Below are positions 10,851-21,105 of a stretch of 64,000 bases of DNA, in pieces (positions within the stretch are counted from its first letter, which is position 1; the number at the start of each line of letters is the position of its first letter). The position numbers and the translations under genes were made by a program. Below the pieces are notes generated by a model. The model saw only the letters and a list, made by a program, of their open reading frames with translations, was not told where the DNA came from and did not search any database. This DNA is from an uncultured Acidobacteriota bacterium (GTDB lineage Bacteria > Acidobacteriota > Vicinamibacteria > Vicinamibacterales > UBA8438), in contig CAJWLU010000003.1 in the NCBI GenBank assembly GCA_913043225.1, positions 176,665 through 240,664 on the forward strand, in the 5' to 3' direction.

Positions 10851-13127
10851 CTACCAATCAAGGGCTAGAGACGTGATGACGCTGCGTCCCGGGCTCGAAT
10901 AGCGGTCGATTACTGGGTCGTTCGTGCCTCGGCCGCGGACGTTCCACCACTCAAAATAGGTTTCATCGGCTAGGTTCAGTAGTCCGATTCGGAAGGTCAC
11001 CGCGTCGGCCGGCCGGATCGAGGTGACGAAGTCAACCACCTGGTACCCGTCCGGCGCGAATTGTCCGTCACCGGCATCCAAAGCAGTCTGTCCTTCGGTG
11101 ATCCGTACCGACAGCTCGCTTGTCCACCAGCCGTCTGGGTCGATGTACTGGAGCCCAATGACGCCTTCGTCCGGCGTAATCGAACCGAGGGGTGTGTCGG
11201 TGTCGCCGGACACGTCGGTCCCGGTTATGGCGGCCCAGCTAGCGCGGAGGCGGACACGGTTGGTGAGATACGTGTCGGCCCTCACTTCGACTCCCCCGAT
11301 CTCTACCTCTGACAGGTTCTGGCTCTGGAACTCCAGGAGGAATGTGGCGGGGTTGAACCCGACCGCGGTTAGCTCGATGAAGTCATCGTAGCGATTCGAG
11401 AAGGCGGTGACATCCAGGCTTGTCCGGCCAAATGCGGCCCGCAGCCCAACTTCAATGTTGTCGCTCGTCTCGGCATTCAACCCCGCGTTCGGGAGCGTGG
11501 TGTATCCGCCCGCTAGGTTGGTGAAGCCGGTGTTGATCGCGCTGTAGGGAGGTGCGCGGAAACCGCCGGCATACTGGGCGTGCGCGGTTAGGTCGTCCGT
11601 GATCAAGACCGTGGCGCCAATCTTCGGCGACATCGCGTCGGCCGAGAAATCAGCTGGCACCGGATTCAGTCCGGCAAGGTAAACCGCGTCCTCCTGGTTG
11701 GCGTCGAGTGAGTACCGGTCGTAGCGGACTCCCGGGACGATGGTCAGACGGTCTACGCGGAGCTCGGCTTGCACATAGACGCCGGTCTCATCAACGTCGC
11801 TCTCTGGGAAATACTTCGCCGGGAAGATGAGGCTGGTCGGCACCGGCGCACCGGTGATGATGTTCGTTTCGCTGCGATCACGCAGCACATCGAACGCATC
11901 ACGTGTGAAGCTGGCGCCGAAGGTCAGCATCAGCCCGTTCTCGGTACCCCCGACCCAGTGTTGTCCTTGCCCTGAGGCGCCGAAGCCCCGCTGCTCGAAA
12001 TTGACGGTGCCGGTCCTCGAGGACAGCGTGGGCGGACCGAACGCGACGATTGATCGGGACTCGTCTACGACTTGGGAGGTGTCGCCCCCCTGGCCGTAGA
12101 CCCGCCAGGTGAGCACGTCTAGTCCACGCTGCGGTGTCAGGACGTGATCGAGCGAGATTCGCCAGCGCTTCTGAGTGTCGAGGGCCTGCGCGCTCGTCGT
12201 GCTGAACGCGACCGGACCGTAGAAGGTTGTGCCCTGAAGCGAGTACGCCGTCGTGTTGATCTGGGTGTCGAACACCTCGATCGCGCTTCGGAAGATGTTT
12301 CCTGGAGACGCAGTGAAAACCATCTTGCCGAGCGCCTGCAGGCCTTCGCGGTCTTGAGGGTTTGGTGCGGTGCGGGTGACGTCCAGTGTTTCGATTGTGC
12401 CCTGGTTCTTGGTCTCGTTTCCCCGGCTGTAACTGGTAAACAGCGACCCCTGCACGCTCTCGTTGCCTAGGGCGAACGCGAAGTTGCCGCTGGTATCGTC
12501 AGAGCGCCCGTCCCAGGTGGTCTTGACGCCGAGGTAGCGCTTCTGGTCCAGCAAGTAGTCGGCAGGGTCTTTCGTGAACAAGGACACGACACCGCCTAGG
12601 GCGTCGCTGCCGTAGAGGGCCGAGTTGGCGCTCCGGACGATCTCGACCGACTTGAGCGTGTCCACGTCGAGGCCTGCCTGATGGATGCTGAACGGCCCGA
12701 AGTCGAACTGCTCGGAGGTCTGTACCCCATCGACCTGGGTCATGACACGGTTACCACCCACGCCACGAATGTTGAAGCCGTTCAAGCCGAGTCGGGTTAC
12801 GTCGTTCTCGACATAGACGCCAGGTTCGAACTTGACGAGGTCGGAGAAGCTCTCGACCATCCGCTCCGCGATGGTTTCGCTATCGATGACCGACACCACG
12901 CCCGGGGTCTCCCTCAGCGATGACGGCGAAAGCGTGGCCGTGACCGTTATCTCATCGAGATACGTCGTCGGCTCGTCCTCGGTCGACTGATTGGTGCTGG
13001 CACTAGTCGACGTTTGCGGCTGAGCCAGCACCTCGGCGGGCAGGAGTGCCACCGTTAGCGAGAAGACGAGGACGGCTCCTGCCCCCTGGGGACCGCGTCC
13101 GCGTCGGAGCTGTTGTACGAGCTGCAT
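10851..13127 (-). CDS. TonB-dependent receptor, heme/hemoglobin type
   Basis: TonB box DEITVTAT, plug FNIRGVGGNRV..VDG and SALYGSDALGGVV, FRAP motif followed by GFTNLAGGY...PNAGL, C-terminal W; start set at ATG 13127 after GGAG. Confidence 0.88.
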   Translation of the reverse strand: MQLVQQLRRGRGPQGAGAVLVFSLTVALLPAEVLAQPQTSTSASTNQSTEDEPTTYLDEITVTATLSPSSLRETPGVVSVIDSETIAERMVESFSDLVKFEPGVYVENDVTRLGLNGFNIRGVGGNRVMTQVDGVQTSEQFDFGPFSIHQAGLDVDTLKSVEIVRSANSALYGSDALGGVVSLFTKDPADYLLDQKRYLGVKTTWDGRSDDTSGNFAFALGNESVQGSLFTSYSRGNETKNQGTIETLDVTRTAPNPQDREGLQALGKMVFTASPGNIFRSAIEVFDTQINTTAYSLQGTTFYGPVAFSTTSAQALDTQKRWRISLDHVLTPQRGLDVLTWRVYGQGGDTSQVVDESRSIVAFGPPTLSSRTGTVNFEQRGFGASGQGQHWVGGTENGLMLTFGASFTRDAFDVLRDRSETNIITGAPVPTSLIFPAKYFPESDVDETGVYVQAELRVDRLTIVPGVRYDRYSLDANQEDAVYLAGLNPVPADFSADAMSPKIGATVLITDDLTAHAQYAGGFRAPPYSAINTGFTNLAGGYTTLPNAGLNAETSDNIEVGLRAAFGRTSLDVTAFSNRYDDFIELTAVGFNPATFLLEFQSQNLSEVEIGGVEVRADTYLTNRVRLRASWAAITGTDVSGDTDTPLGSITPDEGVIGLQYIDPDGWWTSELSVRITEGQTALDAGDGQFAPDGYQVVDFVTSIRPADAVTFRIGLLNLADETYFEWWNVRGRGTNDPVIDRYSSPGRSVITSLALDW

Positions 13128-13238
13128 GGCTATACTCCAAATGGGTTCCGGTCCGCCCCATGCGGTACCGGCGCTCACTTGGGCGCTCCCGTTCGGCTCC
13201 TACACCATGGGCGGGGGCGCCCACCTCTGATCCAACGT

Positions 13239-14552
13239 TCAGTTCAGTGCCTTGTCGTCCGAGCTGACTCGGATAAGTTCGGTCCCGGCCCGGATCAGGA
13301 TCGCATCGTCAACCGCCGCGATCGCTGTGACGGGTGCGCTGACCGACAAGTGGTTAGTAGCCACAACCTGGGCCGTTTTCGCCGATGCCGCCAGTATCTC
13401 GGTCGTACCGTCCTCACCAAAGAAGAAGACGTGGTCTCGGTGACCGAGCGGAGTAGCCCACGTGGACGCGGAAAGCCGATGGGTCCACTGGACCTCGCCC
13501 GATTGTGGGTCCAGGCAGCGTGCCGCGCCCGCTGGGTTGATCCAATATATGCACTTGCCGTACGCGAACGGGGAGCCGAAGTTTGAACCGCTACCGGTCT
13601 TCCAGGCGACGGCCGTTTCGTCGAGTTTGCCGAGCCCGCCCCGTCGGATGGCAAGGTTTGCATCGACCGCCAGTCCTCCCACCACGACGAGCTCGTTCGT
13701 GACCGTTGGGGAGGGCACATGGTTGCCGCTCAGACCGGCGAAGTGCCAGCGGCGTTCGCCGGTGACGGCGTCGAAGCCTTCGATCTGTCCGGACGCGCTG
13801 ACGACGATCTCATTGCCTTCGGGCGATAGCACTGGTGTGGTCCAGGCGACTCCGGCGTCCCGCTCGGTCCGCCATAGCGTGTCGCCAGTGGTTCGATCGA
13901 CCGCGAGAAGATAGGAGTAGGTACGTCGAGTCAGAAGTACCACGACCGCACGGGGAGTCAGCAGCAAGGAGTTTCCGACCCCGTGATTACCTCCTACGGA
14001 TCCATAGTCCTTGGTCAGATCACGTTGCCAATGCACTGCACCGTCGTGGCCCAAGGCGATAAGGTCGCCGCTGGCGAAGAAGCTATAGATGCGGTCTTGG
14101 TCGACGACTGGAGTGGGCGCTGCTTTGGAGACGTAGTCATTGAACTCGTGTGGTTCGGAGGCATCGAAAGCCTGGCGCCACTGTTCGCTGCCGTCTTCCA
14201 GATTGAGCGCCGTGACCCACAGACGTTCTTTCATGGCGCCTTCAATCGAGGTGACGAACACTGAACTGTCCCAGATCACCGGGGAGGACTGCCCAAACCC
14301 CGGGGTGGTGACACGCCAGGCGACAGTCTGGTCGGACCAGGTAAGTGGGAGTCGGGCGGCGTGGCTGACGTTGGTACCGTCGCCGCGGAAGCCCGGCCAT
14401 CGCGTAGCGGCCTCGGAGGTCGCAAAAACGAAACCCGCGCGCCGAGTTTGGGCAGCATGGTCTGCCAGGAGGAGGAAGACCAAAGCCACGATACAGCCGC
14501 CCGCAGAGGGCAGTAGCCCTCCGAAGATCGGTGGAGGCGCTAGCGATCGCAC
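13239..14552 (-). CDS. PQQ-like/BamB-like beta-propeller protein, exported
   Basis: WPGFRG, GQSSPVIW and repeated A.D..TG...W tryptophan-docking blades. Confidence 0.85.
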   Translation of the reverse strand: MRSLAPPPIFGGLLPSAGGCIVALVFLLLADHAAQTRRAGFVFATSEAATRWPGFRGDGTNVSHAARLPLTWSDQTVAWRVTTPGFGQSSPVIWDSSVFVTSIEGAMKERLWVTALNLEDGSEQWRQAFDASEPHEFNDYVSKAAPTPVVDQDRIYSFFASGDLIALGHDGAVHWQRDLTKDYGSVGGNHGVGNSLLLTPRAVVVLLTRRTYSYLLAVDRTTGDTLWRTERDAGVAWTTPVLSPEGNEIVVSASGQIEGFDAVTGERRWHFAGLSGNHVPSPTVTNELVVVGGLAVDANLAIRRGGLGKLDETAVAWKTGSGSNFGSPFAYGKCIYWINPAGAARCLDPQSGEVQWTHRLSASTWATPLGHRDHVFFFGEDGTTEILAASAKTAQVVATNHLSVSAPVTAIAAVDDAILIRAGTELIRVSSDDKALN

Positions 14553-16321
14553 CGGCGCCCCCCTTTCAGGCTGACGCCGGCAAGGCTGGCGTCGCTGTCA
14601 CAGCGGCTACGTTCGTCAGGCTGCCACCCCATGATCTGGCGCATCGCTGCCTCGCCTTGAGTGATTAAGTCACCGATCCAGCGAGCAAATAGCGGGTGGG
14701 GAGCGAAGCCAGCTCCGATCTGCACTCCGTCGAGGTCGCTGAGTTCGTACTGGGATGGGCCGGTCCCGGTCATCCGGGCTGGAATGGCCAGCACTGTCCG
14801 GCCGAGGGCTCGTTCGGCTTCAATGATGCCGTGGATCTGGGCCTCGGCTTCCTCGCGGGCGTCGGGCCAGTCTTCTCGCCAGTTGGCCCAGTGGAATGCC
14901 GCGAAGTTCGGTTCGTGCTCCTGCATCTGCGAGGCGATCGACTCAAGGTTCTCCAACCACGCCGCGTTTCCCTCGTCGCTGCCCGCACCGTGACCAAGGA
15001 GCAGCACGGCCTCCTGCGAGGGATTGTTAGAGAGGGCTCGGGCGCGCGCCGCGAGCGCCTCCGCAAATGCCGGGTGGTCTTCCAGGCCGCCAAGGGTGGC
15101 GAAGATCGCCGCAGAGCGCACCCGAGGGGGTGGTCCCATGCCCATGGACATGCCCGGTTCATCGCCGAGCCCCATCAGATACTCGATGCGGTCGAGAAAT
15201 GACGCTGCTTGGGCGAAGACCCGAATGAGCACGATGGCCCGCGCACCGCGTTCTTCCAGGCGTGAGACGGCTCGACCGAGCACGACCGGGTCGGCCATCG
15301 AGAAGGCATATTCGACCAACCGGCTCTGGGTTAACTCGGCGAGCGGCTGGCGAATCGACTCGTTCCAGTCGATGTCGGCGCCGTGCGGCATCAGCACGTA
15401 CCCGATCTCGTTGGCTGTGGGTGGAATCCAGCGATTGGCCTCTTGGGCCATCCAGACTGTTGCCATGGGGTCTGGGATGACCCCTTGAGCGAGGAACTCC
15501 ACCGAGACCCCGGCAAGGCTCCTACGTAGGGAGCCGTTCAGGTCCATCATCGAGTCCATGCGGGAGCCCAGGTGCCAGGGGATCACCAGGACGCGATCAT
15601 GGGCTTTGGCCAGCGCGTCTGCAGCTGGTCGAATCCGGTCGAGCGACGATTGGAGTTCATCGAAATCACCACTGGGTCCTCGTACCACCACGACGTCAGT
15701 GGCTGCGAGCCCAGTTGCCCGGCTAACCCTCCCGAGAGTGTCTGATAGGTCAGCTTCCATGGCGGAAGTCGAGCTTGCGTCGACCGCTCCGGAGCCGACC
15801 ACGAGGACCGCGACGTCCGGTGGAGGGGCCCCGGGCATACCTGGTCGCACGCCTGCGGTAGAGAGGCGCTCAATCAGGATCTCTTCGGCCAGATACGAAG
15901 CTCCGAACGGGTCCGCCACGGCAATGTCTAGTCCGGTGTTGTTGATGGCGTCGTGGACCCGCACCAGCAGGGGGTGAGTACCGGCCAGGAAGAGCGGCAG
16001 TGCCGCGATCTTAGATGCCCCGTTGAGGCGGAGACGCTCTATCGCAGGTGAGGCGAAGCGCATCGGGTCACCGTCCCACGGAAGGAATGCGAGTTCAGCC
16101 CGGAAGGCTTCTGAGAACTTGCGAAACGCATCGCGCACTTCGTCGTTTCCGAGAAATCCACGGTCTGGGGCCACGACGAGGAAGCCGACCTGACCAGGAT
16201 CGGCCGGTGGTACCAGTCGCGGCACTCGGGTTTCCATGACGTGCTGCGCTGACGTCGTGGTTCCGGCAACCACAATGAGGGCGAAGAATGCCGCGAGGTA
16301 GCGTATGGGCAGTCTGGTCAT
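14540..16321 (-). CDS. Exported protein with CbiX/SirB-like (class II chelatase fold) domains
   Basis: Sec-type signal peptide; VLMPHGA..DWN, EYAFSMADP, LLLGHGAG and GFAPHPLF..W motifs; the N-terminal half resembles a second degenerate copy (IAALPLFL). Confidence 0.65.
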   Translation of the reverse strand: MTRLPIRYLAAFFALIVVAGTTTSAQHVMETRVPRLVPPADPGQVGFLVVAPDRGFLGNDEVRDAFRKFSEAFRAELAFLPWDGDPMRFASPAIERLRLNGASKIAALPLFLAGTHPLLVRVHDAINNTGLDIAVADPFGASYLAEEILIERLSTAGVRPGMPGAPPPDVAVLVVGSGAVDASSTSAMEADLSDTLGRVSRATGLAATDVVVVRGPSGDFDELQSSLDRIRPAADALAKAHDRVLVIPWHLGSRMDSMMDLNGSLRRSLAGVSVEFLAQGVIPDPMATVWMAQEANRWIPPTANEIGYVLMPHGADIDWNESIRQPLAELTQSRLVEYAFSMADPVVLGRAVSRLEERGARAIVLIRVFAQAASFLDRIEYLMGLGDEPGMSMGMGPPPRVRSAAIFATLGGLEDHPAFAEALAARARALSNNPSQEAVLLLGHGAGSDEGNAAWLENLESIASQMQEHEPNFAAFHWANWREDWPDAREEAEAQIHGIIEAERALGRTVLAIPARMTGTGPSQYELSDLDGVQIGAGFAPHPLFARWIGDLITQGEAAMRQIMGWQPDERSRCDSDASLAGVSLKGGRRCDR

Positions 16322-16459: not shown

Positions 16460-16488
16460 TTGATATTGAGAATGAGTCTCAATATCAA
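16460..16488. promoter_or_regulatory. Fur-family box 1
   Basis: TTGATATTGAGA-ATGAG-TCTCAATATCAA, perfect 12-bp inverted repeat upstream of the chelatase/receptor operon. Confidence 0.85.
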
Positions 16489-16536: not shown

Positions 16537-17751
16537 TTATTTGAGGCGAGAGCGTTCGTGGTGGGATCTCAAGAGGCCCTCTCTTGCGAGTCGCCGAATC
16601 AGTGTGAGGTTTCCTGCGGTGTCGAGCGGACCCGGGAGTTCAAGGGCGGTAAACCTTTCATTAGCACAGATGAACTCGATGGCTTCGGCGACATGGAGCG
16701 GGAACCGCAACTCCTGCCCAGCGAAGCACATCACGCACTCGTTCTGCGAGAGGTACGAGTGGATGGCCATCTCTCGTCGAATGACCACCGTATCCTCGTT
16801 CACCAGATGCTGGTCGGCCCGCTGAGTCAGAAGGTCTGAGAAAAGCGGTTGATTGGCCGCAGATACCTCACTGGCAAACCGTCGCCAGACATCCTCAAAA
16901 GAGCGATCGAGTGCCAAGTCAAAGTGCTGGCGAGCCAGGGTCGCGGTCTCTTCTGGTGTGAGTTTCCCACTCGCGAAACCGACTGGGAGGTTGGCGCGGA
17001 GGGCTGGGTTCTCGAGGGCTGCGGCCGACACTGCGTCGGCGAGAAAGTCAGCCCATGTAAAGGCGGTCAATCCGAGGGTGATGTGAAGAGAAGCGGTATC
17101 GACCGACCGCGCGGCATGCATCAGTCCTCGCGGAAGATAGACGAAGTCGCCCGCATGAAGATCGAACTCGTCGATTGTGCGCCCAGGGCGATCGACGTCC
17201 GGATTGCACTTCTGCCCTCGCAAGGGCAGCGCGATCGGGCTCTCGAAGACACTCCACCGTTTTGAGCCGCTGACTTGCATCACGAAGACGTCGTGGGTGT
17301 CCCAATGGGGCTTGAACCCTTGGGCCTCTGGGGGCGTGAGATAGATGTTGGTCTGGATGCGGGAACCGAAGCGCTGCCCCAGCGCGACGCAAAGCGCCGC
17401 GAGTTGGGGGAGGCGACGATGGAGCCCACGAAAGATGACGGTCGCGCCTTCGTCGAAGAGGCGCGTCACTTCCAGCGGTTCGGCTACCCCGGCTGGGCCG
17501 GTGAACCGGCTGGCGTCGATGGCGGTCTCGTCGGCTCGCACTAGTGAAATGTCAGGGAAGCGGAGCGCATGCGTCCCCAGCACGTGGTCCAAGTCGGCGA
17601 AGGTCAGGAGCGACTCGAAGTAATTGGGCTGTTGGCGGTGGACGACCCGGTGTCGTCGCTCGTAGAACTCATCCTCGAAGGTTGAAGTCGAGAGCGGATC
17701 GAGTAGCCAGGCGTACGGAGCGTTGGCGATGGGCGGCGTGTGTGGCTTCAT
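16537..17751 (-). CDS. JmjC/Cupin_4 2-oxoglutarate Fe(II) oxygenase (NO66/ROX-like)
   Basis: NIYLTP...QGFKPHWDTHDVFVMQVSGSKRW (HxD), GDFVYLPRGLMHAA (distal His), SLHITLG, C-terminal winged-helix-like tail LIRRLAREGLL. Confidence 0.9.
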   Translation of the reverse strand: MKPHTPPIANAPYAWLLDPLSTSTFEDEFYERRHRVVHRQQPNYFESLLTFADLDHVLGTHALRFPDISLVRADETAIDASRFTGPAGVAEPLEVTRLFDEGATVIFRGLHRRLPQLAALCVALGQRFGSRIQTNIYLTPPEAQGFKPHWDTHDVFVMQVSGSKRWSVFESPIALPLRGQKCNPDVDRPGRTIDEFDLHAGDFVYLPRGLMHAARSVDTASLHITLGLTAFTWADFLADAVSAAALENPALRANLPVGFASGKLTPEETATLARQHFDLALDRSFEDVWRRFASEVSAANQPLFSDLLTQRADQHLVNEDTVVIRREMAIHSYLSQNECVMCFAGQELRFPLHVAEAIEFICANERFTALELPGPLDTAGNLTLIRRLAREGLLRSHHERSRLK

Positions 17752-17813: not shown

Positions 17814-18281
17814 CTACTGATGAAGCTCGACGCCCTGGGCGACGAAGCTTACTTCGGTTGCCGTGCCGTCAGGGTTTCGAGTCAGCGCGACACCCTCGGC
17901 GATGAGGTGATCCGCGTCGGCTTTGGAGAAGACGTTCGTTTCCAGGCGGCCTTCGAGGCGAGCTCGTTGTCCGGCTGAGTCCGTGGGGACGAAGAAGGCG
18001 TAGTCTCTGAAAGTTACCCGGATTCCACGGTCGTCGCCAGGCCTGACTAACTCCATCCAGCAGCCCTTGACCTGACAGACCCGCTTGACTTCTCCCTCGA
18101 GCGTCAGCAGACGATCCGCATACTGGTCAGCCTGTTCGACAGCTTCGTCAAGCCCAATCGCTGGGGAGCCGCCGAGCCTGGTTCCTCGGGTCACGATGTT
18201 CTGGGCGGTGGCCGAGCCTATCGAAAGCACTGCGGCGATGGTGAATGCGCTGATCTGACGAGTAGGGCGTAGTGATATCAC
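17814..18281 (-). CDS. DUF4920-like exported protein
   Basis: Signal peptide; GEVKRVCQVKGCWMEL, IRVTFRDYAFFVP. Confidence 0.8.
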   Translation of the reverse strand: MISLRPTRQISAFTIAAVLSIGSATAQNIVTRGTRLGGSPAIGLDEAVEQADQYADRLLTLEGEVKRVCQVKGCWMELVRPGDDRGIRVTFRDYAFFVPTDSAGQRARLEGRLETNVFSKADADHLIAEGVALTRNPDGTATEVSFVAQGVELHQ

Positions 18282-18390: not shown

Positions 18391-18420
18391 ATTGAGATTG
18401 AGACTCAGTCTCAATATGTT
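18391..18420. promoter_or_regulatory. Fur-family box 2 overlapping a plus-strand promoter between divergent operons
   Basis: Perfect 9-1-9 ATTGAGACT-C-AGTCTCAAT (18397-18415) plus an extra ATTGAG hexamer; TTGAGA(18392)-N17-TATGTT(18415). Confidence 0.85.
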
Positions 18421-18697: not shown

Positions 18698-19258
18698 ATG
18701 GAAGCGTCAATCGCCATCTTCTTCGGATCCACCACCGGCAGTACACAGATGGTCGCGGAAAAGATCCGTGATCTCCTGGGTGAGCGGCTCTCTCACCTCG
18801 CCGATGTGAACACGGCGGAAGCGTCTGAACTCGAGCAGTACGACGTGATCTTCTTCGGAGTGCCAACGTGGAACGTTGGTGAGATGCAGGATGACTGGGC
18901 CGATTTCATTCCCAATATGTCGGAACTGAACCTTGCAGGAAAGAAGGTTGCCTTCTTTGGGGTTGGCGATGCGGTCGGCTACGCCGAGAACTTTCTGGAT
19001 GCTATGGGCGAGCTCTGGGCGGCCGTGTACGCACAAGGCGCGCCGACACTGGTAGGCGTGTGGCCGACCGACGGATACGTGTTCGAAGCATCGAAAGGGC
19101 TTTACGACGACAACCATTTCCTCGGCGTGGGTCTCGACGAAGACAACGAATCTCACCTAACAGATGAGCGACTGGACCTCTGGCTTGCGCAGGTGCTCCA
19201 GGAGCTGGCCTTGGTTGAGGCCGCAGGAGAGGCCGTCGACGAGGCGGTTGCTCAGTAG
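18698..19258 (+). CDS. fldA: Long-chain flavodoxin
   Basis: [56 protein letters not shown]. Confidence 0.93.
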
Positions 19259-19286: not shown

Positions 19287-19892
19287 ATGATGAACTACAC
19301 CGGGCCCAAAGTGCGTCTGAGTCGAAAGCTGGGCGTCGCCCTGACCCCGAAGGGGCAGGTGGCGATGGAGAAACGGCCGGGGCGACCTGGCCAACATGGT
19401 GGGATGCGTCGCCGCCGGCAGGAGACGTCTTACGGAAAACAACTGCTCGAAAAGCAGCGTCTACGCTTTCAGTACAACGTACACGAACGTCAGATGCGCA
19501 CCTACTTTAAGCGGGCGATGCGGAGAGAGGGACCGACTGGAGATAACCTCGTTCAGCTTCTCGAATCGAGACTTGACGCCCTCGTATATCGGGCGGGTTT
19601 GGCCCGTACGATCTACGCGGCACGTCAGTTCGTTAATCACGGCCATATCGACGTCGATGGCAAGCGTGTCGACATTCCCTCCTTCAGCGTTCGCATCGGC
19701 CAGACCGTTGGAGTCCGAGAGAAATCCCGTCAGCTGGATTGCTTTCGGGACGGACTGGGACTAGAGAGCGCGCCTGCCTATCTGAGGGTGGCAGACACCG
19801 AGCTTTCGTTCACGAAAGACCGCGAGCCGGAAAGAGACGAAGTTCCGGTCATTTGTGACGTTCGCCAGGTGGTCGAGTTCTATTCCCGCTGA
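19287..19892 (+). CDS. rpsD: 30S ribosomal protein S4, form lacking the N-terminal Cys motif; probable paralog
   Basis: [67 protein letters not shown]; not in the alpha operon. Confidence 0.95.
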
Positions 19893-20166: not shown

Positions 20167-20472
20167 CTAACGGGCCGCCGCTCGTTTACCGAAAAGCCTA
20201 CCGACAGCTTGCATCCGCTGCCAGAAAAAGTCGAACTGCCCGAGCAGCGTGCCGTACCCGATCAGGAAGAGGTGATACATCGGAACCATCACCACGAGGT
20301 AGACGGTCCACTGTACCCATCTCTGGGCATCCGGCGGTAGCAGGAAGGCGATGAGTGGAGCCTTCACCAGTACCGTCGACGTGCCAGCCAGCGAGAAGGC
20401 CACCAGGACGGCGACGGTGCGCCAGAGTGTCAAGCGCCAGCGCTCCTGCATGCGCTGCAGGGTCGCTTTCAT
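20167..20472 (-). CDS. DUF6787-like small membrane protein
   Basis: ERW, AFSLAG and P.Y...L..YGTLLGQFDFFW pattern; TAATG overlap with the upstream peptide gene. Confidence 0.7.
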   Translation of the reverse strand: MKATLQRMQERWRLTLWRTVAVLVAFSLAGTSTVLVKAPLIAFLLPPDAQRWVQWTVYLVVMVPMYHLFLIGYGTLLGQFDFFWQRMQAVGRLFGKRAAAR

Positions 20473-20678
20473 TACTGAGAGTCGCTATCGGAGTCTGTGC
20501 CGTCGCCGCCGCTGCTCGGGCAGGCCGCCGTCATGGCCGCGCTCACGCCGATGGCTCCGGCGATCACCGTCTTGGCCAGGAATGAGCGCCGGTCCACGCG
20601 GGCCGTCTGAATGTCGCTGTCGGACAGCGTGGCGGTCCCATCCTTCAGTTTCTTCGCTTCCGGGTGTCTGGTCGTCAT
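20472..20678 (-). CDS. 68-aa twin-arginine/lipobox peptide with Asp-Ser-rich 16-aa C-terminus (candidate RiPP precursor)
   Basis: RBS AGGAG then MTTRHPEAKKLKDGTATLSDSDIQTARVDRRSFLAKTVIAGAIGVSAAMTAACPSSGGDGTDSDSDSQ. Confidence 0.75.
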   Translation of the reverse strand: MTTRHPEAKKLKDGTATLSDSDIQTARVDRRSFLAKTVIAGAIGVSAAMTAACPSSGGDGTDSDSDSQ

Positions 20679-20742
20679 TGGTCTTGTCTCCTGATTGTCC
20701 GAAGGCATCGGCCTAGCTTGACCGGCACCTCGAGTAGCATGT

Positions 20743-20778
20743 AATTTACACCGTATGAGATTGAGACTCAATCTCATA
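20743..20778 (-). promoter_or_regulatory. Fur-family box 3 overlapping the peptide gene promoter
   Basis: Perfect 12-1-12 TATGAGATTGAG-A-CTCAATCTCATA (20754-20778); minus-strand TTGAGT-N17-TAAATT. Confidence 0.85.
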
Positions 20779-21017: not shown

Positions 21018-21105
21018 TGGTGCGGAAGGGGGGATTTGAACCCCCATGAGCCATTGGCTCGCTAGCCCCTCAAGCTAGTGCGTCTGCCAGTTCCGCCACT
21101 TCCGC
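21018..21105 (-). tRNA. tRNA-Leu(GAG)
   Basis: GCGGAAG acceptor stem, anticodon arm CTAGC-TTGAGGG-GCTAG, long variable arm, GGTTCAAATCC, encoded CCA; downstream of secG. Confidence 0.97.

Follow-up and report, generated by a model that had tools for sequence, protein, structure and literature searches.

A short Tat-signal peptide co-occurs with a JmjC oxygenase in Acidobacteriota and other bacteria and may be the precursor of an enzyme-modified, membrane-tethered metal-binding peptide

We analysed a 64,000-nucleotide stretch of genome from an uncultured Acidobacteriota bacterium of the Vicinamibacterales (GenBank assembly GCA_913043225.1, contig CAJWLU010000003.1, positions 176,665 to 240,664; hereafter the window), with a focus on a gene for a 68-residue peptide in which a twin-arginine translocation (Tat) signal is followed by a short Asp-rich tail. 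A first-pass annotation made from the DNA letters had proposed that this peptide is a ribosomally made lipopeptide metallophore whose Asp residues are hydroxylated before export by a JmjC-type enzyme encoded nearby. What we found is a conserved short protein that occurs together with this enzyme across bacterial lineages and whose design is consistent with an enzyme-modified, exported and metal-binding product. The elements of the locus on which this reading turns are the following.

20472-20678, minus strand: gene for the 68-residue precursor peptide, read as an open reading frame (ORF), stop codon included
20687-20692, minus strand: ribosome-binding site AGGAGA, 8 nt before the ATG
20610-20627, minus strand: leader motif L18-S-D-S-D-I23, of L(X)4I type; L18, D22 and I23 invariant in alignments A1 and A3
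20577-20594, minus strand: twin-arginine motif D29-R-R-S-F-L34; V28 and DRRSF invariant in close homologues
20520-20531, minus strand: relaxed lipobox T50-A-A-C53; C53 and P54 invariant in alignments A1 and A3
20475-20522, minus strand: predicted mature peptide CPSSGGDGTDSDSDSQ, 16 residues; D62 invariant, S63 and D64 nearly so
20754-20778, no strand: perfect 25-bp 12-1-12 palindrome TATGAGATTGAG-A-CTCAATCTCATA, of Fur type, before the peptide gene
16537-17751, minus strand: JmjC_2 (NO66-like) Fe/2-oxoglutarate oxygenase with a C-terminal domain resembling the recognition element (RRE) of peptides made by the ribosome and modified after translation (RiPPs); PF08007, E = 1.7e-26

Translation of the peptide ORF gives MTTRHPEAKKLKDGTATLSDSDIQTARVDRRSFLAKTVIAGAIGVSAAMTAACPSSGGDGTDSDSDSQ, which runs from an N-terminal stretch containing T-L-S-D-S-D-I-Q-T through V-D-R-R-S-F-L-A-K and a stretch rich in Ala, Gly and Val to T-A-A-C and then CPSSGGDGTDSDSDSQ. 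The long n-region, RRSFL motif, relaxed lipobox and 16-residue tail described in the first-pass annotation are all present in this product, as are the perfect box and the ribosome-binding site before its gene, where AGGAGA sits 8 nt ahead of the ATG at 20676-20678. The promoter said to lie beneath the box is a mixed case: a TTGAGT-17-TAAATT pair with 8 of 12 consensus matches, overlapped by the palindrome, can be picked out by eye, whereas a sigma-70 promoter scan returned no site at its threshold. The Tat-signal model TIGR01409 scored the 68-residue peptide at 14.5 bits, under its cut-off of 16.7, and the genome encodes both TatC (C1:387688-388323) and LspA.

Eight close homologues of the peptide are 65-76 residues long and share L18, D22, I23, V28, DRRSFLAK, G41, G44, A47, MTAACP, S56 and DSDS as invariant positions. 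These lengths, together with the placement of its start inside the palindrome, led us to reject an alternative 101-residue reading from an ATG at 20777. When a profile of 28 diverse members was compared with 1.84 billion representatives, it matched 200 cluster representatives at E ≤ 1e-3, of which 46 reached E ≤ 1e-10; among the 150 best matches, 146 had at most 146 residues. The four longer ones comprise P0184 (202 residues), which on reading is a read-through call fusing the peptide to the start of a JmjC protein; P0187 (197 residues), the peptide with an odd extension; P0245 (231 residues), probably unrelated to the family; and P0257 (1,424 residues). On these lengths we discarded the possibility, raised in the first-pass annotation, that the peptide is a truncated remnant of a longer lipoprotein found in relatives, and regard it as a conserved short protein. 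Scanning of 16 peptides against Pfam and NCBIfam returned only sub-threshold Tat-signal and compositional (SD-repeat adhesin) matches, and no known peptide family in these two libraries appears to cover the precursors. All named rows among the matches were called "hypothetical protein", and the metagenome-assembled genomes carrying them were labelled Acidobacteriota, Gemmatimonadota (two) and Gammaproteobacteria; our taxon names come from these few named rows, as labelled by their sources. Another 27 Acidobacteriota genomes gave weak profile matches (E 5e-5 to 0.01) that covered the signal region only, mostly in long frames, and were assumed to be unrelated Tat signals, and a Streptomyces locus (L051) matched the profile at E = 8e-4.

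We next compared the distribution of the peptide with that of the JmjC gene. Among 401 sampled Acidobacteriota genomes, strong peptide matches (E ≤ 1e-11) occurred in seven (G000, G044, G110, G258, G325, G351 and G397), and JmjC orthologues of at least 44% identity were found in exactly the same seven, while both are missing from G073 and G334, members of the same family. At the G351 locus (G351:C164; L017/L061/L063) the enzyme match breaks into two frames, covering residues 13-167 and 163-326, and the adjacent peptide reads RQ for RR and has extra Cys; this locus may be a decaying copy or an assembly error. We then compared 16 related loci, six from the 401-genome sample and ten others, with neighbours placed by tblastn, and found that peptide and JmjC genes are immediate divergent neighbours in 13 of them, that is, in all but L041, L048 and L049. 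A third set comprised 80 metagenome contig loci found with a JmjC alignment at 30-99% identity. A strict detector, which asks for a Tat-like motif, an uncharged stretch and at least two [STC]DxD units, identified a peptide in 48 of these 80 loci; where 450 bp or more of upstream sequence was available (60 loci), it did so in 45. These counts refer to loci and not to independent lineages, as duplicates exist (e.g. L043/L067 and L042/L071). Looser patterns recovered clear variant peptides in 5 of the remaining 15 loci, with L114 doubtful. The peptide gene of most lineages shares the strand of the JmjC gene and lies 17-370 bp upstream of it; Vicinamibacterales-type loci have the pair in divergent orientation, and adjacency is kept in both layouts down to about 32% JmjC identity; L110, L118 and L122 each carry two peptides in tandem. 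The tie to the JmjC gene is much stronger than one would judge from the window, and extends to the sampled genomes, the related loci and the assessable metagenome loci alike. Judged by gene content and order, co-occurrence and adjacency of peptide and enzyme reach across at least three phyla as named by the sources, which supports a functional tie between the two.

To describe the peptides without presupposing their tails, we used a detector restricted to the leader and Tat motif, which returned 52 ORFs, 50-51 of them distinct, in 79 loci. A Cys follows RRxFL by 15-19 residues in 51 of 51 distinct peptides and is always preceded by A, G or S at position -1, and the relaxed lipobox pattern fits 40 of the 51. 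Every one of the 50 distinct tails contains D-x-D. When each tail was shuffled, 117 D-x-D pairs were expected against the 180 observed and 120 D-D pairs against the 9 observed, and the residue before D-x-D was S in 59, C in 54 and T in 35 cases, or 148 of 180. Asp makes up 27% and Ser 17% of the tail residues. A wide alignment of 28 rows (A4) gave the leader as [LI]-x-[DE]-x-[DE]-[IVM], its hydrophobic positions being L/I and I/V/M in 28 of 28 rows, and showed R31 to be invariant and R30, F33 and L34 to be at least 90% conserved. The tails themselves vary from the single TDSDSDS of the window to tandem units of ASDSDQME (at least five copies), SDSDGSQ (eight copies) and ATDSDQ; Cys-framed tails of the form CDxD...TDxD...CDxD also occur, and a minority without the Cys (L059, P0260, L120 and L140) have an Ala-x-Ala-type site followed by SDPD-Lys repeats or QTDxD units. 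From these comparisons the unit common to the family is, at the level of sequence, [S/T/C]-D-x-D. The number of [STC]DxD units per tail in relatives ranges from 1-2 to more than eight, and because it varies so widely, the three hydroxy-Asp residues making one hexadentate site that the first-pass annotation had envisaged are not a fixed trait of the family; that part of the proposal is not supported.

The JmjC enzyme carries no signal peptide on reading, and its HxD...H triad (H149, D151 and H212) is invariant in 23 of 23 aligned sequences. A structural model of the enzyme (predicted local distance difference test score, pLDDT, 87) was closest among PDB entries to NO66 and MINA53 (E = 8e-27, TMq 0.72), followed by YcfD and YxbC, and its matches to ribosomal oxygenases span E-values from 8e-27 to 1e-16. 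Folded alone, the C-terminal 90 residues reached a pLDDT of 90 and are predicted to form a short strand, a three-stranded sheet, two long helices with a short helical turn between them and a closing strand. In Foldseek the winged-helix domain of NO66/MINA53 ranks first for this domain (TMq 0.74-0.77), and the next matches are RREs, namely those of TruD, TbiB1 with its leader, ThcOx, PbtF, McbBCD, LynD-type proteins, PqqD and TigE (E 0.08-0.3, probability 0.87-0.98, TMq 0.49-0.60), of which the TbiB1 and PbtF structures are leader-bound. Prediction of the enzyme-peptide complex gave an ipSAE of 0.60 (runs of 0.60, 0.63 and 0.58), with partner pLDDT of at least 52 and contact agreement of at least 56%, while the highest-scoring of three controls gave 0.02; 116 of 157 solved complexes reach this mark, as do 2 of 215 mismatches, and scores of 0.60 or less came from only 18 of the 157 and from both mismatches. 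Because the peptides conserve an L(X)4I motif and the enzyme has an RRE-like C-terminal domain, it is reasonable to suppose that the enzyme reads the extended leader, as the first-pass annotation had suggested; the motif and the domain both speak for this part of the proposal, to which the modelled complex adds weak support.

Several homologues of the enzyme lie in settings of their own. At L062 (G365:C1:2729290-2733468) a 34%-identical JmjC_2 homologue is part of a class I lanthipeptide-type cluster, where it sits between three tandem double-glycine precursors (leader ending in VLSDADLESVAGG, ACC core) and LanC, with a LanB fragment upstream. In G014, the gene ahead of a 36%-identical homologue encodes a Tat-signal peptide that has the same leader, NLTDEQIVTERKLGRRSFL, and the gene behind the homologue encodes a methyltransferase of ICMT/PEMT type. 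An LCM-type methyltransferase stands directly behind the JmjC gene in L043 (831-1859, minus strand) and L067 (4674-5699, plus strand), and one of ICMT/PEMT type does so in L059 (2803-3225 and 617-1366, both minus strand), where the peptide lacks the lipobox Cys and its Lys-rich tail bears ADPD units. Such carboxyl-methyltransferase-type genes hint at a second modification in some lineages. Small exported proteins of about 130-175 residues and no known family, found directly behind the JmjC gene in two groups of distant loci (L087/L090/L103 and L105/L118/L122), are possible lineage-specific third components.

The remaining features of the window that bear on regulation and on the spacing of the two genes are listed here.

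20167-20472, minus strand: DUF6787 membrane protein, 101 residues (PF20584, E = 1.6e-19), coupled to the peptide gene by TAATG
19290-19892, plus strand: paralogue of ribosomal protein S4 behind the flavodoxin gene, under the second box
18698-19258, plus strand: flavodoxin (PF00258, E = 1.3e-21), an iron-sparing marker under the second box
18393-18413, no strand: second box, 1 mismatch, between the DUF4920-JmjC (minus) and flavodoxin-S4 (plus) genes
17814-18281, minus strand: DUF4920 exported protein (PF16267, E = 2.8e-18), upstream of the JmjC gene in the same transcription unit
16467-16487, no strand: third box, before the CbiX-like / beta-propeller / TonB-receptor operon
10851-16321, minus strand: operon of CbiX-like, PQQ_2 beta-propeller and TonB-dependent receptor genes, from library matches, under the same box

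The palindrome before the peptide gene has the form TGA-N-A-N-TGA...TCA-N-T-N-TCA, which we take, by its likeness to the E. coli consensus, to be that of a classical Fur box. Using its 21-bp core as the query, we found three sites in the window at up to three mismatches (the first, at 20756-20776, lies before the peptide gene) compared with none in 100 shuffles, and six sites in the 3.85-Mb genome at up to two mismatches compared with none for a reversed control. A looser scan revealed weaker copies spaced 6 bp apart beside several of the sites, an arrangement that presumably resembles the hexamer arrays of Fur boxes, as well as a 4-mismatch box directly before a FeoA-FeoB fusion (FeoAB), and this 96%-complete genome contains one FUR-family gene. 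Three products are encoded by the operon behind the third box: an exported protein of 593 residues that shows weak matches of CbiX type, a beta-propeller (PQQ_2) and a TonB-dependent receptor. Contig C51 carries a further copy of the CbiX-like gene that is 72% identical. Elsewhere in the genome (C1:153571-157310, L007), two neighbouring boxes at 157246 and 157310 front an operon for ApbE and proteins of 467, 187 and 156 residues that had no Pfam matches, and this operon is probably another member of the regulon. Outside this strain, the low-GC relative L042 has the box TGATAATGAGTCTCATTATCA, and several Vicinamibacterales loci have box-like palindromes in the interval that separates peptide and enzyme genes. 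Collectively, these motif matches support the view that the box is a Fur-type operator and its neighbourhood iron-related, with boxes before the flavodoxin gene, the TonB-receptor operon and, in weaker form, FeoAB. Iron-linked genes recur next to the peptide in relatives: a PepSY_TM gene is directly downstream of it in 9 of the 16 related loci and nearby in a tenth, and appears again in L074-L076, in L078 and beside the distant modules L108 and L128; L071, L108, L128 and L131 each have a single CbiX-like gene, and L128 also has a gene for haem-binding ChaN. A tRNA-Leu (GAG) gene occupies 21018-21105 on the minus strand, some 240 bp past the palindrome.

The JmjC gene ends 2,721 bp from the peptide gene, matching the distance of about 2.7 kb given in the first-pass annotation. 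In L065, the nearest of the relatives that are arranged differently (its enzyme is 68% identical), the peptide, DUF4920 and JmjC genes follow one another in this order on one strand. The DUF6787 and flavodoxin-S4 genes that lie between peptide and enzyme in the window are absent from L065. Given the close spacing in most lineages and the order in L065, the 2.7-kb gap looks, from this comparison of gene orders, as though DUF6787 and the flavodoxin-S4 pair had been inserted secondarily. The peptide stop codon overlaps as TAATG the start of DUF6787, a gene that the first-pass annotation had passed over. By tblastn DUF6787 adjoins the peptide only in L064, which is the same strain, so that one of the 80 metagenome loci and none of the 16 related ones show this arrangement. 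We therefore did not retain DUF6787 as a core partner, since it stands beside the peptide in this strain only; searches of open-access papers and bioRxiv found no literature on it.

Several characterized systems share parts of this arrangement. The ribosomal oxygenases NO66, MINA53 and YcfD/RoxA have the same three-domain build as the JmjC enzyme, but their targets are His or Arg residues in ribosomal proteins, and no small precursor gene accompanies them; that the JmjC enzyme is so consistently paired with the peptide argues for a substrate other than a ribosomal protein. Siderophores made by non-ribosomal peptide synthetases (NRPSs) can contain beta-hydroxyaspartate, which is formed by Fe/2-oxoglutarate Asp hydroxylases and serves as a ligand of Fe(III). 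If the chemistry suggested below is right, the peptide would share with them the Fe(III) ligand, a lipid tail and control by iron starvation, yet it would be gene-encoded without an NRPS, membrane-tethered and variable in its number of units. TorD, DmsD and NapD are cytoplasmic proofreading chaperones of Tat signals. By analogy the JmjC enzyme may likewise be a cytoplasmic protein acting on the n-region or twin-arginine region before export; unlike it, those chaperones are not enzymes acting on their passenger.

Closer precedents come from RiPP biosynthesis. PhaI (PMC8784127) and BipG (PMC12707348) are PF08007/JmjC hydroxylases that act on ornithine in ribosomal precursors, CzlI, from the wider JmjC group, also acts on a ribosomal peptide (PMC11575548), and RRE-like domains fused to PF08007 have been described (PMC12710340). 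The Fe/2-oxoglutarate hydroxylase MppG has a C-terminal RRE and needs an L(X)4L leader motif, which binds that RRE as an added beta-strand (bioRxiv 10.64898/2026.10.04.756588). MppG, PhaI and BipG resemble the present system, as far as these sources describe them, in combining a NO66/YcfD-like oxygenase beside a short precursor with an RRE-like C-terminal domain and an HxD...H triad, and the L(X)4L of the MppE leader has the same hydrophobic spacing as the L(X)4I here. They differ from it in their products, a macrocyclised lanthipeptide core for MppG (Moorena mpp cluster) and hydroxylated ornithine for PhaI (phaeornamide) and BipG (biphenomycin), and in belonging to multi-enzyme clusters with dedicated export and proteolysis, whereas the unit described here is a minimal one of two genes, with an Asp-repeat core and a leader that is joined to a Tat signal bearing an invariant Cys. 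Because of this fusion, general export and a signal peptidase would stand in for the transporter and protease of those clusters. Bufferins, which involve BufA, the MNIO enzyme BufB and BufC, are periplasmic RiPP metallophores with Sec signal peptides (PMC11626156). They have in common with our proposal cytoplasmic modification, export through a general pathway by an N-terminal signal, periplasmic metal binding and metal-responsive control, and they depart from it in using Sec and not Tat, an MNIO/DUF692 enzyme and not a JmjC enzyme, and Cys-derived thiooxazoles and not Asp, in serving copper defence and not iron starvation, and in being soluble small folded proteins without a lipobox. By the marks of bufferins, the peptide matches neither DUF2282 nor any other Pfam model, and no DUF692 or DUF2063 protein was among the scanned neighbours. 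The parts of the present system are thus of known kinds, namely JmjC-RRE peptide hydroxylases and signal-peptide-bearing RiPP metallophores, and the statement that no such system had been described needs narrowing to this extent; as described in the sources cited, though, neither these hydroxylases nor bufferins have a Tat signal, a lipobox or an Asp-repeat core. What did survive, within open-access papers and bioRxiv, is that we found no described equivalent and met with none of its distinguishing features, namely a leader embedded in a Tat-lipoprotein signal, an Asp-repeat core, a minimal unit of two genes and Fur control.

Taking these observations together, we lean, without great confidence, towards the view that the 68-residue gene encodes the precursor of an enzyme-modified, exported and membrane-tethered poly-acidic peptide that binds metal, likely Fe(III). 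The N-terminal extension would offer an L(X)4I recognition strand directly ahead of the twin-arginine signal, which the cytoplasmic NO66-like JmjC Fe(II)/2-oxoglutarate oxygenase would grip through its RRE-like C-terminal domain; because the leader strand abuts the twin arginines, the enzyme could gain access ahead of the Tat receptor. Hydroxylation of the tail would come next, its likeliest sites being the Asp residues of [S/T/C]-D-x-D units. The 16-residue core consists of C, P, S, G, D, T and Q only, and Asp is the likeliest target because it is the sole one of these of a kind on which JmjC hydroxylases are known to act, in part by the list in PMC11575548. Export by Tat would follow, and a cut before the invariant Cys would strip leader and signal in one step, probably leaving a lipid anchor, so that the membrane-tethered poly-acidic (hydroxy-Asp) peptide could bind metal cations, likeliest Fe(III). 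Its product would serve a Fur-controlled iron-starvation response together with flavodoxin, the haem-type receptor operon and, in relatives, a PepSY_TM-type protein. Binding by the enzyme, the modified residue, lipidation, the metal and a role in iron uptake are all steps that we infer. A fuller version would see the family as widespread, undescribed gene-encoded metallophores of Acidobacteriota, Gemmatimonadota and Gammaproteobacteria, with a RiPP leader on a Tat-lipoprotein signal, beta-hydroxy-Asp made by the JmjC enzyme, finishing by Tat and signal peptidase II, and lipid-anchored capture of Fe(III) without an NRPS followed by hand-over to PepSY_TM-type reductases; we put this forward tentatively and consider it rather doubtful.

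A number of observations weigh against the reading just given. Peptide and enzyme genes belong to separate transcription units in the window, 2.7 kb apart, and no peptide was seen in 9 of the 60 assessable metagenome loci (L080, L123, L127, L129, L130, L138, L139, L141 and L142). In the lipobox, T, A or S mostly takes the place of L at position -3, which also fits signal peptidase I, and stretches rich in Ser, Asp and Gly behind a lipobox Cys are common as lipoprotein tethers. On the side of the enzyme, the E-values of the RRE matches are modest, the winged-helix domain of ribosomal oxygenases is what the C-terminal domain represents in the first place, the predicted complex supports binding weakly, and we know of no ROX-type JmjC enzyme that hydroxylates Asp; FIH, which does so, belongs to a different JmjC branch. 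The association with Fur boxes, repeated within this genome, fades across the metagenome set: scored at up to two mismatches in 14 fixed positions, a Fur-core box precedes only 3 of 49 peptide genes, this strain among the three, and most of the distant modules have housekeeping or unrelated neighbours. The iron link is for these two reasons apparent only in the Vicinamibacterales-type clade and a few marine lineages. In addition, the S4 copy under the second box (19290-19892) lacks the N-terminal CxxC...CxxxxC that the other copy (C1:409605-410216, minus strand; the two are 40% identical) retains. Paralogue pairs with and without such Cys residues are a hallmark of zinc regulons, and a Cys-less S4 paralogue under the same box resembles that pattern, which makes the assignment to iron a tentative one. 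A pair of this sort under metal control is itself unusual, both for S4 and for an iron regulon.

These points give substance to other explanations. The same enzyme and peptide might handle Ca2+, Zn2+, another cation or mineral surfaces, with iron control recruited by particular lineages. We consider this unlikely, although the 46 of 49 metagenome peptide genes without a Fur-core box, the mostly housekeeping surroundings of distant modules, the Cys-less S4 paralogue with its canonical CxxC...CxxxxC counterpart, the highly variable repeat number and tails such as CDxD...TDxD...CDxD, which recall calcium-binding Asp loops, would all suit it; set against these are the box before the flavodoxin gene and haem-type receptor operon in this strain, its weaker copy before FeoAB, and the recurrence of PepSY_TM, CbiX-like and ChaN genes beside modules in separate lineages. 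Ranking below this in our estimation, and more unlikely, is a plain small acidic Tat lipoprotein that is never modified, working with DUF6787 or PepSY_TM or as a cation-binding tether, with the JmjC enzyme merely co-regulated and its substrate elsewhere, for instance a ribosomal protein. Such a protein would agree with a JmjC fold nearest to ribosomal oxygenases, with an S4 paralogue in the same regulon, with the separation of the two genes in the window and with the acidic Ser/Gly-rich linkers commonly found behind a lipobox Cys. It would leave without a reason the exact phyletic co-occurrence in 401 genomes, the adjacency in both layouts down to about 32% JmjC identity, a leader motif conserved beyond what a Tat signal needs, the avoidance of D-D and enrichment of [STC]DxD, which is not simple low complexity, and the JmjC homologue inside a lanthipeptide cluster.

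Two further explanations keep the contact between enzyme and peptide and alter its purpose. The enzyme could modify the signal region, for example one of the twin arginines 7-8 residues past the leader strand, and so gate export by the availability of Fe(II) and O2. Its recognition strand lies right beside the invariant VDRRSF, and its relatives hydroxylate Arg, His and ornithine, YcfD-type ones being arginine hydroxylases by their PDB titles and PhaI and BipG acting on ornithine in the sources noted above. The family-wide co-variation of [STC]DxD tails with the enzyme would then have no explanation, and we know of no precedent; we think this quite improbable. More improbable still is that the signal-less JmjC enzyme rides with the peptide to the periplasm and is anchored there by the lipopeptide. 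Tat does carry folded, cofactor-loaded proteins, the enzyme itself lacks a signal peptide and an enzyme-peptide interaction is predicted, but catalysis dependent on 2-oxoglutarate is improbable outside the cytoplasm, hitch-hikers bind mature domains while the conserved element here is in the cleaved n-region, and the RiPP precedents account for the same facts more simply.

If the preferred reading, an exported peptide hydroxylated on Asp by its partner enzyme, is true, the family would represent the first ribosomal route to hydroxy-aspartate-type iron ligands known to us, and the first RiPP-like precursor known to us with its leader inside a Tat-lipoprotein signal, a placement that would make a two-gene unit enough because general export and signal-peptidase machinery would finish the product. 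The ribosomal-oxygenase branch of JmjC enzymes would gain an activity directed at Asp, and the biology of abundant, poorly cultured soil and marine bacteria an envelope-anchored device for capturing iron. Even on a cautious reading, at least 200 sequence clusters of unannotated short proteins gain a partner enzyme and a testable function, in a system that is small and open to direct tests.

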